DNA of 64,000 nt from contig CBDDFZ010000001.1 in assembly GCA_965227515.1 (NCBI GenBank), positions 640,001 to 704,000 of the forward strand, in the 5' to 3' direction. The DNA comes from Alphaproteobacteria bacterium (lineage in GTDB: Bacteria > Pseudomonadota > Alphaproteobacteria > CALKHQ01). Both the position numbers and the translations under genes were made by a program. Positions 18,975 to 57,501 of the stretch are shown here, piece after piece (position 1 is the stretch's first letter; each line of letters starts with the position of its first letter). The notes under the pieces are model-generated. The model searched no databases. It saw nothing but the letters and a program-made list of their open reading frames with translations, and was not told the DNA's origin.

Positions 18975-19532
18975 TTAAGCCCCTCTCATTGCAGTCTGCA
19001 GCCGCTGCAGCTGGCTGCGCACCGACGTATCGATCATCCGCGACCCGACCTGAACGACCAGCCCGCCGATCAGCTCCTCGTCGACCTCGAAATCCACACT
19101 GACCTTCGACCCCATCGCCTTGCGCAGGGCCTCGGTCACGCTCTTGGACTGTTCGTCCTTCAACGGTTTCGCCGACACCACCCGGGCGCGCTCCTCGCCA
19201 CGGCGGCGCGCCAGCTCGGCCAGATAGGCCCGGATCATCGCCGGCAGCGCGAACAGGCGCCGGTTGGCGGCGACCACGCCCACGAAATGCCTCACGATGT
19301 CGCCGATTTTGGCCTCCGCCAGCACTGCCTCCACCGCTGCGCCCTGTTGGTCGCGCGGCACCAGGGGGCTGCGCGTCACGGTGCGCAGGTCTTCGCTGCC
19401 CTGCAGCAAATCCTGGATGGTGGCAAGATCGGCGGCGACCGCATCATGCGCCTTTGCTTCATCGGCGAGGTCGAACAGCGCGGCCGCATACCGGCTCGCA
19501 AGTTCTGATACGCCTAGTCCTTCGACTGCCAC
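18975..19532 (-). CDS. atpH: F1F0 ATP synthase delta subunit
   Basis: ASRYAAALF, LIGGLVVQVGSRMIDTS; GTG start; operon position. Confidence 0.95.
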   Translation of the reverse strand: MAVEGLGVSELASRYAAALFDLADEAKAHDAVAADLATIQDLLQGSEDLRTVTRSPLVPRDQQGAAVEAVLAEAKIGDIVRHFVGVVAANRRLFALPAMIRAYLAELARRRGEERARVVSAKPLKDEQSKSVTEALRKAMGSKVSVDFEVDEELIGGLVVQVGSRMIDTSVRSQLQRLQTAMRGA

Positions 19533-53323: not shown

Positions 53324-54358
53324 TCAGCCCACGGCGGGGATGATGTCCTCCGCCAGCATGGCGCGCAAGTCGCCGACGTAACCGTCGGAGCGTGCCGGGC
53401 GGTTGGGGTCGGAGGTGATGGCGACGGTCAGTGCCGCGTCAGGCACCACGTAGAGGAGCTGGCCGCCATAGCCCCTTGCGTAGCGCACTTCCGCGCCGCC
53501 CAGCTCGGTCGCGAACCAGCCATAGCCGTACCGGTCGCCGGAATAGGGCGAGCGGGTGCGCGGCTGCCAGCTCGCCTCGATCCAGCCCTCGCTGACCACC
53601 CGCTGGCCGTTCCACACCCCGCCCATGCGCGCCATCTCGCCGAAGCGCCACAGCGCGGTCGGCGCCAGCGCCATGTTGTTGCCGCCCATGTAGAAGCCCT
53701 GCGGGTCGCGGGTCCATGGCGGCACTTGGATCTCCAGCGGCGTGCCCAGCCAGTCGCGGGCCAGCGCCAGCAGGCTCTGACCGGTCACCTGCGACAGCAC
53801 CGCGCCGAGCACGTGGTAGCTGCCGGTGGAATAGAGCATGCGCCCGCCCGGCACGTCGATGAACGGGCGGGTCAGCACATAGCGCACCCAGTTGCCGCTG
53901 CCGACCCAGGCGCCGTAGTTGGGGCCGGAGGTGCGGTCGAGCCCGGCGCGCATGGTCAGCAAATGGTCGACGGTGATGTCCTGGACCAATGGATCGGCAT
54001 CGGCCGGCACCAGGTCGCCCAGCAACGGCGCTACCGGCGTGTCGGGCCCGGCGATCAGGCCACGGTCGATGGCGATGCCGGTCAGGATGGCGACGATGGT
54101 CTTCGACGCCGACTTGACGTTGGCCGGGTAGTCGAGCGACGGGCCGCGAAACGCCTCCGCCGCAACCACCTCGCCGCGATGGCCGACGATCATGCTGTGG
54201 AGCTGGTCGAGGCCGCGGGCGCGTTCGACCGCGCGGGCCAGCACGTCGGTGTCCAGGGCCGGCAGCGCCGCGCGCGCGAGCGGAGCGGCAGCGAGCGTCC
54301 CCGCCGCCGCGGCGCAACCGGCAAGCACGTCCCGCCGGCGAAGTTTCGTTTTTGCCAT
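53324..54358 (-). CDS. Tat-exported serine hydrolase (beta-lactamase-related family)
   Basis: RRRDVL Tat motif, SASK (SxxK), LLTMRAGL, YST, ARGYGGQ. Confidence 0.85.
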   Translation of the reverse strand: MAKTKLRRRDVLAGCAAAAGTLAAAPLARAALPALDTDVLARAVERARGLDQLHSMIVGHRGEVVAAEAFRGPSLDYPANVKSASKTIVAILTGIAIDRGLIAGPDTPVAPLLGDLVPADADPLVQDITVDHLLTMRAGLDRTSGPNYGAWVGSGNWVRYVLTRPFIDVPGGRMLYSTGSYHVLGAVLSQVTGQSLLALARDWLGTPLEIQVPPWTRDPQGFYMGGNNMALAPTALWRFGEMARMGGVWNGQRVVSEGWIEASWQPRTRSPYSGDRYGYGWFATELGGAEVRYARGYGGQLLYVVPDAALTVAITSDPNRPARSDGYVGDLRAMLAEDIIPAVG

Positions 54359-54511
54359 GACGGCAGAATTGCGCCAGCGCGACCGTGAGATCAACTCATC
54401 GACGCTTCACACCCGCGTCATCTCGCCGACTCGATGAAGACGCCCTTGCCACATGGGTTATGCCATTCACACATCTCGATTGCGGTTGCTCCATTTCTCC
54501 AAAAGACGCTC

Positions 54512-54688
54512 GACTCCCTCGGCCTTGTGCCGAGGGTCCATAGCAACGCCGGACGCGATTGGCGGGCGGGAAGGCATCAACATCTGATGCAGCAACCACT
54601 CCAAGGACAATATCCAGGATCGGTGGCATATCGCCAAACCATTGGAGCGAATGCGAAAATAGGCCCTCGGCACAAGGCCGAGGGCGTC
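54512..54688. repeat. REP-doublet-like element, family A
   Basis: GACTCCCTCGGCCTTGTGCCGAGGGTCCAT...GGCCCTCGGCACAAGGCCGAGGGCGTC. Confidence 0.82.
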
Positions 54689-54702
54689 AACTTTCTAGGC
54701 GC

Positions 54703-54775
54703 GTAGCCTGGGTGAAGCGTAGCGAAACCCGGGTTCCACTTCGTTCCACCCAGGCTACGGGGTTCCATCCAGGCT
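54703..54775. repeat. GTAG-family REP cluster, interrupted at its last GTAG by the IS110 element
   Basis: GTAGCCTGGGTGAAGCGTAGCGAAACCCGGG...CCAGGCTAC...CCATCCAGGCT; remainder ACGGGAT lies at 56205-56211. Confidence 0.88.
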
Positions 54776-54809
54776 TCTGTAACGGACCGTTGTTGGTCAA
54801 TCCCTTTTT

Positions 54810-54985
54810 CGTCGTCCCGGCGCCTGGGTCATGCTTCTGTACGGGGTCGGCGCAGGGCCGCCGCCAAGATGGATATGCGAGGATCGGTCGGTCCAATCTA
54901 CGGAAGCGTGCTCTCGTGCGAGGCGACATCCTGGATGGCGGCCTGACCTGATCCATCGTCCCGGCGCGGGACGGCGCTTGACGGG
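54810..54985 (-). ncRNA. Putative bridge (seek) RNA of the IS110 element; ends approximate
   Basis: 5'->3': CCAUCCAGG (left target), CCGUAG (right target, reverse complement), CCAUCU (left donor), UACAGAAG (right donor, reverse complement), arranged around hairpins. Confidence 0.78.
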
Positions 54986-55048
54986 CCGGTGTCAGCGCCC
55001 GCCGAAGCTCGTGTGTTGGTTCTCCCTATGCGGCGGTCGTCTTTGCCA

Positions 55049-56092
55049 TTAGGCCGCGGCCATCGCCGGGCGCACCGGTCCGGCATGGTTGAACACGGTG
55101 CCGTCAACCCACATCCGGTGCATGATCACGGCCAGCCGGCGCGCCAGGGCCACCTTCGCCTTCCTCATGCCGGCTCGCCTGGCCAGCTTCATCGCCCAGC
55201 TCTTCAACCACCCGCCCTTGATCGGCCGGGTCAGGATCACGTGCGCCGCCTCGTAAAGCGCTGCACGCACGTCCGCATCGCCCACCTTCGAGATCCGCCC
55301 CGTCATCTCGCTCTCGCCCGACTGGCGCTTGGTCGGCGTCAGACCGAAGTGCGCCCCCACCAGGCGCGACGACGCAAACCGCCCAGGGTCGTCCACCCCC
55401 GACAAGTAGGTCAGACCGACAATCTCCCCCACCCCCGGCACCGTCATCAGCAGACGCACCCGAGCGTCCGCCTGCGATGCCGCTCGGACCTGCCGGTCCA
55501 GCGCCGTGAACGAATGCAGCAACCCATCTCGTGCCGCCAGCAACGCACCCGCCACCGCCTCCAAGACAGGATGCCCAGACACCAATGTCGCAATACGCGC
55601 GGCAAAGCGGCGCCGCGTCGTGGGCCCTACCTTCAGCCCGAAGTTCCGCAGCTGACCGCGAAGGTGCATCTCAAGGTCGTGCAGTTTGCAGCGAAGCTGA
55701 TCGCGCCCCTTCAAGAGCGCGCGCATCTCCTGAGCCGCCAAAGACTTGCAATGAACAGGCCGAAACCAACCCACACGCATCATCTGAGCAATCCCACGCG
55801 CGTCCGAGCGATCCGACTTCACCGGCATCGTCGAAAGCGCTCGCGCAACGTGACGCGTCTCCAGCAACTCAACCGAAAGACCACCCTGCGCGCACTCCCG
55901 CACAAGCCATTGCGACAATGGACCCGCCTCAAGACCAATCCGCTCAACCGAAAAACCCAGACCCTCAAACCAAGCCAATAAACCCGAAGGCGTGCTCGCA
56001 ATACGAGCCTCGCAGACAATCCCGCCCGCGCCGTCAACAACGCACACCGATGACCATTCCAAAGAAACGTCAATCCCGGCATAGTAGTTCAT
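55049..56092 (-). CDS. IS110 family DEDD recombinase/transposase (347 aa)
   Basis: GIDVS, GLEAG, KSDRSDA (DEDD); TVPGVG; HFGLTP..RQSG (conserved Ser); GRISKVGD..VR.ALYEAA; frame intact. Confidence 0.95.
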   Translation of the reverse strand: MNYYAGIDVSLEWSSVCVVDGAGGIVCEARIASTPSGLLAWFEGLGFSVERIGLEAGPLSQWLVRECAQGGLSVELLETRHVARALSTMPVKSDRSDARGIAQMMRVGWFRPVHCKSLAAQEMRALLKGRDQLRCKLHDLEMHLRGQLRNFGLKVGPTTRRRFAARIATLVSGHPVLEAVAGALLAARDGLLHSFTALDRQVRAASQADARVRLLMTVPGVGEIVGLTYLSGVDDPGRFASSRLVGAHFGLTPTKRQSGESEMTGRISKVGDADVRAALYEAAHVILTRPIKGGWLKSWAMKLARRAGMRKAKVALARRLAVIMHRMWVDGTVFNHAGPVRPAMAAA

Positions 56093-56210
56093 GGTCGTCT
56101 CTCCTCGATGTCTTGGAGCGGCAAACCCGACTCCGTGTATGACACCGACATCTTGAGGGACGACCACTCAACTCAGCCAAAAAAACAGGACCGTTAGCCC
56201 ATCTACGGGA

Positions 56211-56699
56211 TTAGGCCGCTTTCTTGTTCAGAGTCACCTCGGCCAGCGAGGTCAGCTCGCGGTCGACATCGTATTCGTTGTCCAGGTTCTGCTGCAGCAG
56301 GGTCTTGGCGGTGTCGTTACCCAGCAAGTCGGCCCATGAGACCAGCGTGCCGTAGCGCGCGATGCCATAGTGCTTGGCGGCCTGCAGCGCGGCCACGATG
56401 GCGGCGTCCATCGCCTGGTCGTCGTCGCAATCGGCGATGATTTCGTCGGTCTCGTCGATGATGCCGTTGATCGCCGGACAGGTCTCGCCGCGCGGCTTCA
56501 GGTCGATGGTCTCGAACACGCTTTCCAGGCGCTCGACCTTCTTGTCGACCTCGTCGCCGTGGGTGTTCAGGAAGTTGGTCAGCGTGTCGAAATTGGCCTT
56601 GGCCTGCATCTTCGGCATCGTCGTGCGCATGCGCTTCTCGGCGTAGTAGATGTCGCGCAGGAAGTGCTTGAACAGGTCGTCGAGCGAAGTCATTGCCAT
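56211..56699 (-). CDS. Ferritin-like DUF892/YciF family protein
   Basis: LRDIYYAEK, RLESVF, CPAINGII, HYGIARYGTL..WA..LG. Confidence 0.88.
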   Translation of the reverse strand: MAMTSLDDLFKHFLRDIYYAEKRMRTTMPKMQAKANFDTLTNFLNTHGDEVDKKVERLESVFETIDLKPRGETCPAINGIIDETDEIIADCDDDQAMDAAIVAALQAAKHYGIARYGTLVSWADLLGNDTAKTLLQQNLDNEYDVDRELTSLAEVTLNKKAA

Positions 56700-56773
56700 G
56701 TCGTCCTCCGGAGCGTTCCGGGAGCCGGCGCACCAGGACGCGACAACGCTCCCGTTGTTGGGGTCAATCCCAC

Positions 56774-56798
56774 AACGGAGGAAAGGCTCGAAGGTTCC
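56774..56798 (-). promoter_or_regulatory. EcfG/sigmaT general-stress promoter
   Basis: Exact GGAAC-N16-CGTT upstream of a DUF892 gene, a typical general-stress regulon member. Confidence 0.7.
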
Positions 56799-56812
56799 GG
56801 CTGTACCGGCGC

Positions 56813-56892
56813 GTAGCCCGGGTGAAGCGCAGCGAAACCCGGGTTCCATTTCGTTCCACGCAGGCTACCGGGTTCCACCCGGGCTACGGGAT
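56813..56892. repeat. GTAG-family REP cluster (unoccupied)
   Basis: GTAGCCCGGGTGAAGCGCAGCGAAACCCGGG...CAGGCTAC...CCGGGCTACGGGAT. Confidence 0.88.
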
Positions 56893-56907
56893 CGACAAGT
56901 CCCTGAT

Positions 56908-57501
56908 CTAGTGCTCCCGGGGCGCGTGCTTGTTCAGGATGCGCTGCAGGGTGCGGCGGTGCATGTTCAGGCGCCGCGCCGTTTCCGAGACGTTGCGGTC
57001 GCACTGCTCGAACACGCGCTGGATGTGCTCCCAGCGCACGCGGTCGGCCGACATCGGGTTTTCCGGCGGCGGCGGCAGCGAGCCCTCGTGCGCGGTGAGC
57101 GCGGCGGCCACCTGGTCGGCGTCGGCGGGCTTGGGCAGATAGTCGACCGCGCCGGCCTTGATCGCGCTGACCGCGGTGGCGATGTTGCCGTACCCGGTCA
57201 GCATGACGATGCGGCAGTCCGGGCGCGCGTCGCGCAGCACCGGCACGATGGACAGGCCATTGCCGTCCTCCAGCCGCATGTCGATGACCGCGAAGGCGGG
57301 TGGCTTGACTGCAATCGCCTCCATCGACTCCGCCACCGACGCCGTGCCGACCACGGTGAAGCCGCGCTTCTCCATCGCCCGGCTCAGGCGGTTGCGTAGC
57401 GGCGCATCGTCGTCGACGATCAACAGATGGCGGTCGTCGGCGGCGTTGGGACCCGCATTGGTTGTGTGGGGTGACGATCCGCCGGGTGGCGTTGTTGTCA
57501 T
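56908..57501 (-). CDS. regA: Redox response regulator RegA/PrrA/ActR
   Basis: LTGYGNIATAV, PENPMSADRVRWEHIQRV, NVSETARRLNMHRRTLQRIL. Confidence 0.95.
   Translation of the reverse strand: MTTTPPGGSSPHTTNAGPNAADDRHLLIVDDDAPLRNRLSRAMEKRGFTVVGTASVAESMEAIAVKPPAFAVIDMRLEDGNGLSIVPVLRDARPDCRIVMLTGYGNIATAVSAIKAGAVDYLPKPADADQVAAALTAHEGSLPPPPENPMSADRVRWEHIQRVFEQCDRNVSETARRLNMHRRTLQRILNKHAPREH

Follow-up and report, generated by a model that had tools for sequence, protein, structure and literature searches.

An apparently intact insertion sequence of the IS1111 group in an alphaproteobacterial genome, with a putative 3' bridge/seek RNA that matches its insertion site and its own ends

In a window of 64,000 nucleotides from an alphaproteobacterial genome (assembly GCA_965227515.1, contig CBDDFZ010000001.1, positions 640,001 to 704,000 of the forward strand; positions below are counted from the first base of this window), we found an element that is, with a probability of about 0.88, an intact insertion sequence of the IS1111 group within the IS110 family, carrying at its 3' end a bridge/seek RNA that matches both the insertion site and the ends of the element itself. 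Bridge/seek-RNA recombinases are under development as programmable tools for DNA insertion without double-strand breaks, and mechanistic work has dealt mostly with IS621 and ISCro4 (IS110 group) and with a few IS1111 members from enterobacteria and pseudomonads. A sequence-only reading of the window had proposed an intact, potentially reprogrammable IS110 element with a CT core and with its guide RNA downstream of the recombinase gene, target guides preceding donor guides. This arrangement is borne out by covariation within the genome and across families and by a conserved RNA structure, and the element is apparently active; that it is intact and could be reprogrammed is what its sequence suggests.

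Read on the minus strand, an upstream gene ends in its stop codon and is followed by tcccgt-AG, by a left end starting with ATGGGCTAACGGTCC, by an open reading frame (ORF) of 347 amino acids and by a 275-nt non-coding end closing with GGTCCGTTACAGA-AG, after which the flank continues as cctggatgg. At the left junction, ..cccgtAG is followed by ATGGGCTAACGG, with the core at 56204-56203 and the element beginning at 56202, and at the right junction ..CCGTTACAGAAG is followed by cctggatgg, with the core at 54775-54774. From these two junctions follow the reconstructed target and the donor/circle junction, both as given in the sequence-only reading. Four segments that had been assigned as guides are indeed read directly on the minus strand of the non-coding end: CCATCCAGG at 54938-54930, CCGTAG at 54903-54898, CCATCT at 54872-54867 and TACAGAAG at 54841-54834. 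The 9-mer of the first segment occurs six times on both strands of the 64 kb, compared to 0.87 expected, two of the six being the guide and its own flank, and the 8-mer of the last occurs twice (the element end and the internal segment), compared to 0.29 expected, so that a chance origin of the matches is negligible. The four other copies of the 9-mer lie at 19412, 22888, 24177 and 40940.

Target guide 1 could be put to a natural test within the genome (two contigs, 5.5 Mb), which holds 20 full copies of the element and a further one with an internal deletion; their identity to the window copy is 89-93%, and ORFs of 345-347 amino acids are open in all 20 full copies. These 20 share their termini and are inserted sequence-specifically, each at GTAG followed by CC[CT]GG[AG]TG, at an AG core (CT on the plus strand) within a repeat resembling the repetitive extragenic palindromic (REP) family, with a 2-bp common core, without terminal inverted repeats and without target duplication beyond that core. 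By their right ends the copies form three sublineages. The window copy, sole member of its own, matches its site at 9/9 positions; six further copies combine guide CCAUCCAGG with CCTGGGTG sites, giving one U:G wobble; and 13 copies carry guide CCAUCCGGG, nine of them at CCCGGATG, two at CCCGGGTG and two at CCTGGGTGA. An A or a G in the guide tracks a T or a C in the site, with CCAUCCAGG lying at CCTGG in 7/7 copies and CCAUCCGGG at CCCGG in 11/13 (Fisher p 4.6e-4), and for a draw from the pool of 114 empty and 20 occupied sites the binomial p is 4.8e-4 for one site preference and 1.8e-4 for the other. The 114 are uninterrupted GTAG + CCYGGRTG sites of this REP-like family in the genome (60 C/G, 33 T/G, 18 C/A and 3 T/A); the exact 16-nt reconstructed target is present uninterrupted once elsewhere, which, like the common termini of the copies and a weak joint in a public contig (see below), fixes the ends of the element independently. 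At guide positions 1-8, all 12 non-Watson-Crick pairs are G:U/T wobbles when the guide is read on the recombinase strand, compared to 0/12 on the other strand.

A scan of species-representative genomes yielded 80 homologous loci with 38-68% protein identity, hosted mostly by alphaproteobacterial metagenome-assembled genomes (MAGs) and further by Nitrobacter, Xanthobacter, Mesorhizobium and others. The right-end architecture was detected by nhmmer in 39 of the 80, and the same architecture is present in about 25 homologous families of other alphaproteobacteria (protein identity <=68%); three loci whose right ends nhmmer did not pick up (L041, L046, L084) were inspected by eye only. The segment at the position of guide 1 varies with the flank: in two copies from one MAG, AAUCCGCC and AACCCGCC stand beside GGCGGATT and GGCGGGTT, respectively, and the homologue guides CAUGCGGG, GCAUGUCCG and GGAGCGCGC each match their own flank. 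Over 36 loci from 25 families, with the second genomic allele included, guide 1 matched the right flank at a mean of 7.24/9 positions compared to 4.73 off-diagonal, which none of 10,000 flank permutations reached; left out of this test were L014, L028 and L058, whose right end is not alignable to the terminal motif, L026, where the non-coding region is repeated as the right flank, and L047, with only 5 nt of flank. Guide 2 was identical to the six bases left of the core at 3.65/6 positions compared to 1.77 (0/10,000 permutations; 20 families, 30 loci), leaving out L028 and L070 (left flank <6 nt) and loci for which no left end was found. The covariation of guides with insertion sites that the sequence-only reading had put forward as a check is seen for target guide 1 within the genome and for both target guides across families, and the pattern it had named as a refutation, identical guides kept at differing targets, is not what the 25 families display, guide 1 changing with the flank.

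To describe the RNA structure, 26 sequences were aligned, RNAalifold found three elements, and a slightly extended version of that structure was counted (Table 1). The long-range helix H1 is paired in 99.4% of cases with 3/7 pairs changed on both sides, the stem of the target-binding stem-loop (helix 2) in 93.5% with 6/13, and the hairpin between the donor guides (helix 3) in 94.2% with 5/6; over the whole structure of 26 pairs, 95.1% of the cells are paired and 14/26 pairs are changed on both sides. None of 500 shuffles did as well, and slid controls reached 34-50% paired. This covariation upholds the GGATC-A-GGTC/GACC-GATCC stem and the GC-rich donor hairpin proposed from the sequence, and the internal CTCG/CGAG hairpin was found at 54913-54922; all homologues have a hairpin between the target guides, differing in sequence and length (by eye, not counted). 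The guides sit in loops, with the target guides flanking this variable hairpin within the 74-nt stem-loop and the donor segments flanking the GC hairpin in a multi-loop closed by H1. A local hairpin GUCCC/GGGAC upstream of the target stem-loop was considered and rejected: it showed no covariation, its columns being offset between clades so that the count is uninformative, and H1 was preferred because the two overlap and H1 covaries.

Table 1. Features of the insertion sequence and its putative bridge/seek RNA in the 64,000-nucleotide window
Feature	Position	Strand	Remarks
Whole insertion sequence	54774..56202	minus	1429 bp including one AG core copy; second core copy 56203-56204
Left target half (cccgt)	56205..56209	minus	followed by core AG 56204-56203; matches guide 2; GTAG in 20/20 copies
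Right target half CCTGGATGG	54765..54773	minus	5' arm of REP-like hairpin; 9/9 complementary to guide 1
Left end, 110 nt	56093..56202	minus	terminal ATGGGC, sub-terminal inverted repeat, 5'-UTR (untranslated region) hairpin up to Shine-Dalgarno and start codon
Left sub-terminal inverted repeat TAACGGTCC	56196-56188	minus	partner 54788-54780
Recombinase gene, 347 aa	55049..56092	minus	DEDD RuvC-like and Tnp domains; D8, E55, D94, D97, S258-G259
Right end, 275 nt	54774..55048	minus	carries the putative bridge/seek RNA gene
Bridge RNA core, 146 nt (predicted)	54821..54966	minus	enclosed by helix H1, RNAalifold
Long-range helix H1, CGCCGGG with CCAGGCG	54966-54960 with 54827-54821	minus	
Target-binding stem-loop, 74 nt	54881..54954	minus	
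Basal stem, GGATC-A-GGTC with GACCGATCC	54954-54945 with 54889-54881	minus	extended by G.CCG with UGG..C
Target guide 1 CCAUCCAGG	54930..54938	minus	pairs with element-strand right flank; left target guide (LTG) in the IS621 frame; 9/9 match
Hairpin CUCG-CA-CGAG between target guides	54913..54922	minus	
Target guide 2 + core	54896..54903	minus	CCGU-AG 54903-54898, then AU 54897-54896; covaries with left flank
Donor guide 1 + core, CCAU-CU	54867..54872	minus	complementary to AG-ATGG at left end
GC-rich hairpin between donor guides	54845..54865	minus	helix 3
Donor guide 2 + core	54832..54841	minus	UACAGA-AG 54841-54834, then CA 54833-54832
-35-like motif and right sub-terminal inverted repeat	54780..54800	minus	TTGACC 54800-54795, then GGTCCGTTA 54788-54780

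The recombinase matches Pfam PF01548 (DEDD_Tnp_IS110, E 6e-13) and PF02371 (Transposase_20, E 1.1e-19) and scores 239 bits, with a cut-off of 140, against the NCBIfam equivalog NF033542, 'IS110 family RNA-guided transposase'. Among proteins of solved structure, only the transposases of IS621 (E 7e-12) and ISCro4 (E 2e-11) are related to it by sequence, and D8, E55, D94, D97 and S258 align with the catalytic residues of IS621 (8wt6) as named by Hiraizumi et al. (accessible part of PMC11208158); the N-terminal stretch of this alignment is weak when taken alone, protein similarity to IS621 being confined to the C-terminal domain. Judged from this alignment, the catalytic motifs are intact. The assignment to the IS110 family stands, while the group has to be refined to IS1111 instead of IS110 proper. 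Described criteria for IS1111 are a longer non-coding region downstream of tnp, a transposase of 330-350 aa and sub-terminal inverted repeats of 7-17 bp (PMC11187229), and the 110-nt left and 275-nt right ends, the 347 aa, the motif GLTPTKRQSG and the sub-terminal inverted repeat place the element in this group. The 9-bp sub-terminal repeat agrees at 8/9 positions (TAACGGTCC compared to the reverse complement of GGTCCGTTA); in homologues the repeats pair 10/10, e.g. GTAACGGGCC, and by eye the repeat covaries in the TAATCGGCCG clade.

Taken together, this anatomy suggests how the element would move. The 275-nt right end would be transcribed on the recombinase strand to give the bridge/seek RNA, in which the 9-nt guide of the target stem-loop would pair with the element-strand DNA right of the core and a guide of 4-6 nt, core included, with the opposite strand left of the core, whereas the two multi-loop segments would pair likewise with the two ends, left and right, of the excised circle. 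The RNA-bound DEDD/Ser recombinase would then join circle and target by strand exchange at the CT/AG core, and the element would enter GTAG followed by CCYGGRTG at the foot of a REP-like hairpin without target duplication. The dinucleotides directly after the core-pairing segments might act as handshake guides after strand exchange: the AU at 54897-54896, a candidate for such a dinucleotide by its resemblance to the IS621 handshake guides (by eye, without a statistic), equals the first two left-end bases (AT) in nearly all homologues, with CU/CT in L058 (by eye). Following donor guide 2, the C of CA at 54833-54832 is the first base of the right flank, so that the window copy agrees at 1/2 positions; by eye, agreement is also seen in L016, L030, L035 and L046/L084 and disagreement in L013, L027, L031, L047 and L085.

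Transcription could start at the circle junction, from a promoter restored there, or arise from read-through of the upstream gene. When the right and left ends are joined, TTGACC, a 17-nt spacer and a weak -10-like GAAGAT come together, a combination formed only in the joined form, and TTGAC lies 17-18 nt from the terminal GAAG in 25 of the 26 aligned homologues; a sigma-70 scan of the linear element returned no promoter-like sites. By analogy with the junction promoter Pjunc of ISEc11 (PMC11187229; such work is also among the references in the accessible part of PMC13626964), gene and RNA would be transcribed from the circle junction, an idea at the level of motifs. Among contigs of four DNA or unknown-type sequencing runs no circle junction was found, the uncovered parts being uninformative. 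Regarding read-through, which has been shown for IS621 (accessible part of PMC13626964), the upstream gene on the minus strand (ORF 56211-56849) stops 6 nt before the element, and beyond the element, in region 54663-54773, follow a pair of REP-like repeats and a strong hairpin of terminator type (54685-54663) with a T-run behind it; the insertion between this gene and its likely terminator would make read-through into the element possible. At the very start of the left end (56188-56200, minus strand), a small terminator-like hairpin is followed by TGTTTTTTTG, a T-run that is peculiar to the window copy, the 19 sister copies having ..TTGTTTGGTGG.. or ..TCGTTTGGTGG..

Several observations weigh against the bridge/seek RNA reading. 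The minimum free energy (MFE) folds of the single sequence, over 54776-55048 and 54821-54966, have z scores of -1.27 and -1.11, no stabler than shuffles, and have guide 1 partly paired with the donor-guide region, without the comparative structure. We read this as showing where MFE prediction falls short for an RNA bound to protein, and still count it on the negative side; the loop placement of the guides derives from comparison and not from thermodynamics. Folding of 54776-55048, proposed earlier as a check, at face value gave one of the outcomes that the sequence-only reading had named as refuting, as by MFE the guides are partly buried in a shuffle-like fold, whereas in the comparative structure they lie in loops. 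In Rfam 15, no match was found at E <=1 in 54000-57500, which shows only the absence of a curated family. Guide position 9 is mismatched in 6/20 genomic copies, and five of the six mismatches being wobbles on the opposite strand, this position is probably not read. Three of the 25 families have a poor guide 1 match (L019 4/9, L039 4/9, L091 5/9); the flank of L019 suits the guide of its sister copy L016 and that of L039 an L036-type guide, which suggests action in trans or later drift. Moreover, the right ends of the homologues were set by homology to the terminal AGAAG motif and not by empty sites. The remaining points concern the donor side: donor guide 1 of the window copy, with 4/7 non-core bases and the two core bases, is the weakest and shortest of the homologue set, the donor statistics are weakened by variation stemming from few lineages or independent changes, and an 82-nt seekRNA without a donor region sufficed for the movement of an IS1111 member (PMC11187229), so that donor segments may be dispensable.

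These last points bear on the alternative that survives best, which we consider improbable: the RNA would be a narrow seekRNA that guides target choice only, the recombinase reading the ends via the sub-terminal inverted repeats and needing no donor segments. For ISEc11, the 82-nt seekRNA, holding the target match only, moved a mini-IS better than a 154-nt form, and a different mode of end recognition in IS1111 is suggested by the authors (PMC11187229). The target stem-loop alone measures 74 nt here, the window copy's donor guide 1 has four non-core matches only, and by eye the sub-terminal inverted repeats show conservation along with covariation between clades. The donor segments, however, follow the ends in several lineages. 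Donor segment 1 matches the left end at 6.1/7 positions, a score reached by 29 of 10,000 permutations, and changes along with it in L017 (ACACCAU with ATGGTGT) and in L030 and L070 (GGCAU with ATGCC), while donor segment 2 matches the right end at 6.9/9 positions (13 of 10,000 permutations), ACAGAAG, AGAGAAG and AGCGAAG each occurring in both (AGCGAAG in L046 and L084, by eye). The segments furthermore lie in a conserved multi-loop beside a covarying hairpin.

Considerably less probable still is that the matches are passive relics, either captured or duplicated pieces of REPs or ends or a silent fossil guide, without present RNA function. In favour of relics, donor segment 2 with its context, CCCGUACAGAAGC, looks similar to the genuine right end CCGTTACAGAAGC, as expected of an end duplicated internally; guide 1 has a likeness to the REP hairpin's 3' arm, and the MFE fold is unremarkable. 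Relics would not explain, though, why the matching bases recur at the same two positions of one covarying stem-loop in homologues whose targets are quite different and not REPs, nor why ORFs are intact and ends identical in 20 copies inserted at different sites, why the guide allele predicts the site subtype and why mismatches are of the wobble type on one strand only. That a functional RNA is instead read from the opposite (window plus) strand is scarcely credible: guide-DNA complementarity is strand-symmetric on duplex DNA and the five C:A mismatches at position 9 would be wobbles on that strand, but all 12 internal mismatches are wobbles on the recombinase strand only, many G-U pairs in the helices (e.g. 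14 U-G at columns 35/107 and 22 G-U at columns 42/100) would turn into C-A, and published IS1111 seekRNAs map downstream of tnp (PMC11187229).

If the bridge/seek RNA is accepted, the copies within the genome can be interpreted one step further. We regard it as possible, though on balance somewhat doubtful, that the genome was caught with bridge-RNA retargeting in progress, three co-resident sublineages with identical ends and different guide alleles partitioning the REP subtypes. This interpretation draws on a single A-to-G shift in the guide that accompanies the change from CCTGG to CCCGG, on the tolerance of G:U wobbles at two guide positions, and on two copies of one sublineage at sites better suited to the guide of another. 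In the genomic copies C1:3233662 and C1:392231, the own flank fits the sister-lineage guide better than the own guide 1. Together with L019 and L039, such poorly fitting copies are consistent with an RNA acting in trans on other circles, or with drift after insertion. If retargeting is real, the two misfit copies would mean that the RNA-recombinase complex of one lineage can mobilise circles of another in trans, the copies would form a natural data set on mismatch tolerance and, together with the apparent handshake dinucleotides, the rules of IS621 would extend to the IS1111 group.

Further observations concern copies and variants of the element. The deleted copy, C1:998356-999172, joins element positions 1-710 to about 1309-1421, so that the gene has lost its 3' half and the RNA region its 5' part, guide 1 included. 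Among public sequencing data, a contig of run X3 has 54773 joined straight to 56203 and so omits precisely 54774-56202, i.e. the 1429 bases of the element; this joint is weak (depth 2.6, short side of 34 nt within the repeat, 90% likeness) and might, as weak evidence, fit an unoccupied orthologous site in a relative. A 1438-nt contig of run X4 (record 26) spans 54769-56206 with 109 differences and 6 gaps, and represents a whole-element copy of about 92% identity in another public data set. In one MAG copy (L026), a right end at 2301-2488 is directly followed by a second 3' non-coding (RNA) region at 2554-2741, an arrangement that recalls the extra downstream copies of the small-RNA gene of ISPpu9 (accessible part of PMC12288879). 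Four homologues (L017, L020, L033, L034) have about 200 nt extra after the recombinase stop codon, ahead of the conserved RNA region, which implies that the spacing of gene and RNA is not fixed. In front of the gene, the 5' UTR (56093-56160, minus strand) folds into a long conserved hairpin that is also present in homologues L016-L053. Its outer stem covers the Shine-Dalgarno just before the ATG, as GGTCGTCCCTC with GAGGGACGACC in most homologues and as GCTGCGCTTC with GAAGCGCAGC in another clade (both by eye), and its inner stems carry compensatory changes; this hairpin may serve in translational control of the recombinase.

In terms of significance, the element adds a well-delimited alphaproteobacterial IS1111 orthologue in which guides, core, ends and comparative structure can be read, and its 20 natural insertions within one genome tell strictly read guide positions from those at which wobble is tolerated. 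It helps annotation, as such right ends are at present unannotated RNA genes, and offers a candidate orthologue for testing, leaving knowledge of the mechanism unchanged. It is a clean example of the mechanism described in 2024, with an anatomy that does not depart from the publications of 2024-2026 compared here, the supplementary tables of PMC11208160 lying outside that comparison.

A bridge/seek RNA 3' of the gene has been published for the IS1111 group (PMC11187229; also in the accessible part of PMC11208160), and the nearest counterparts are the seekRNAs of ISEc11, ISPa11, ISKpn4 and ISPst6 (Siddiquee et al. 2024, PMC11187229). These elements likewise have a long non-coding region downstream of tnp, a transposase of 330-350 aa with a GL-P----SG motif (347 aa and GLTPTKRQSG here), sub-terminal inverted repeats and two short target matches, the segment pairing with the element strand lying 5' of the one pairing with the opposite strand. 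ISPa11 targets a REP as well, ISEc11 and ISXne4 differ by natural retargeting through guide change as may the sublineages here, and the ISEc11 seekRNAs of 82 and 154 nt compare to the 74-nt stem-loop and 146-nt core (all PMC11187229). In contrast to that set, the present element is known from sequence alone and belongs to an uncharacterised alphaproteobacterial lineage, with the closest relatives found outside the genome at <=68% protein identity (ISfinder entries lying outside this comparison), and donor-matching segments are evident in it, whereas PMC11187229 assigns no donor-binding role. An element on plasmid pACMV1 of Acidiphilium multivorum AIU301 (NC_015178.1 240964-242394), annotated solely as 'IS110 family transposase' without an RNA feature, aligns over 100% at 67.6% DNA identity and has the same end motifs and RNA architecture with a different target (GCGCTCATA..), its guide 1 matching its own right flank at 9/9 positions (by eye).

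The comparison with IS621 draws on the accessible parts of PMC11208160 (Durrant et al. 2024) and PMC11208158 (Hiraizumi et al. 2024). In IS621, where the core reads CT, the left and right target guides (LTG, RTG) precede the left and right donor guides (LDG, RDG), as they do here, the LTG being the sense of the left target and the RTG the reverse complement of core and right target (PMC11208160). Also shared with IS621 are the CT core, its inclusion in RTG, LDG and RDG, the REP target (PMC11208160) and the aligned DEDD residues and Ser; the AU after the core-pairing part of the RTG equals the donor bases beside the core and may correspond to the handshake guides (PMC11208158). Unlike in IS621, the RNA is located 3' of the gene and on the RNA-coding strand the core is AG, so that the whole transcription unit is inverted with respect to the recombination site, which is the reversed order of top- and bottom-strand matches described by Siddiquee et al. 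for IS1111 (PMC11187229). Other differences are the long sub-terminal inverted repeats, the LTG of the window copy, which holds and pairs one of the two core bases where RTG, LDG and RDG each hold both, and the donor guides, which lie in a multi-loop under a long-range helix and not in a simple internal loop. Such donor-binding bases, placed within a multi-loop, are found in many orthologues of Durrant et al., whose predictions on ISfinder entries place the bridge RNA in the right end of 93% of IS1111 elements (accessible part of PMC11208160), where it would lie here as well.

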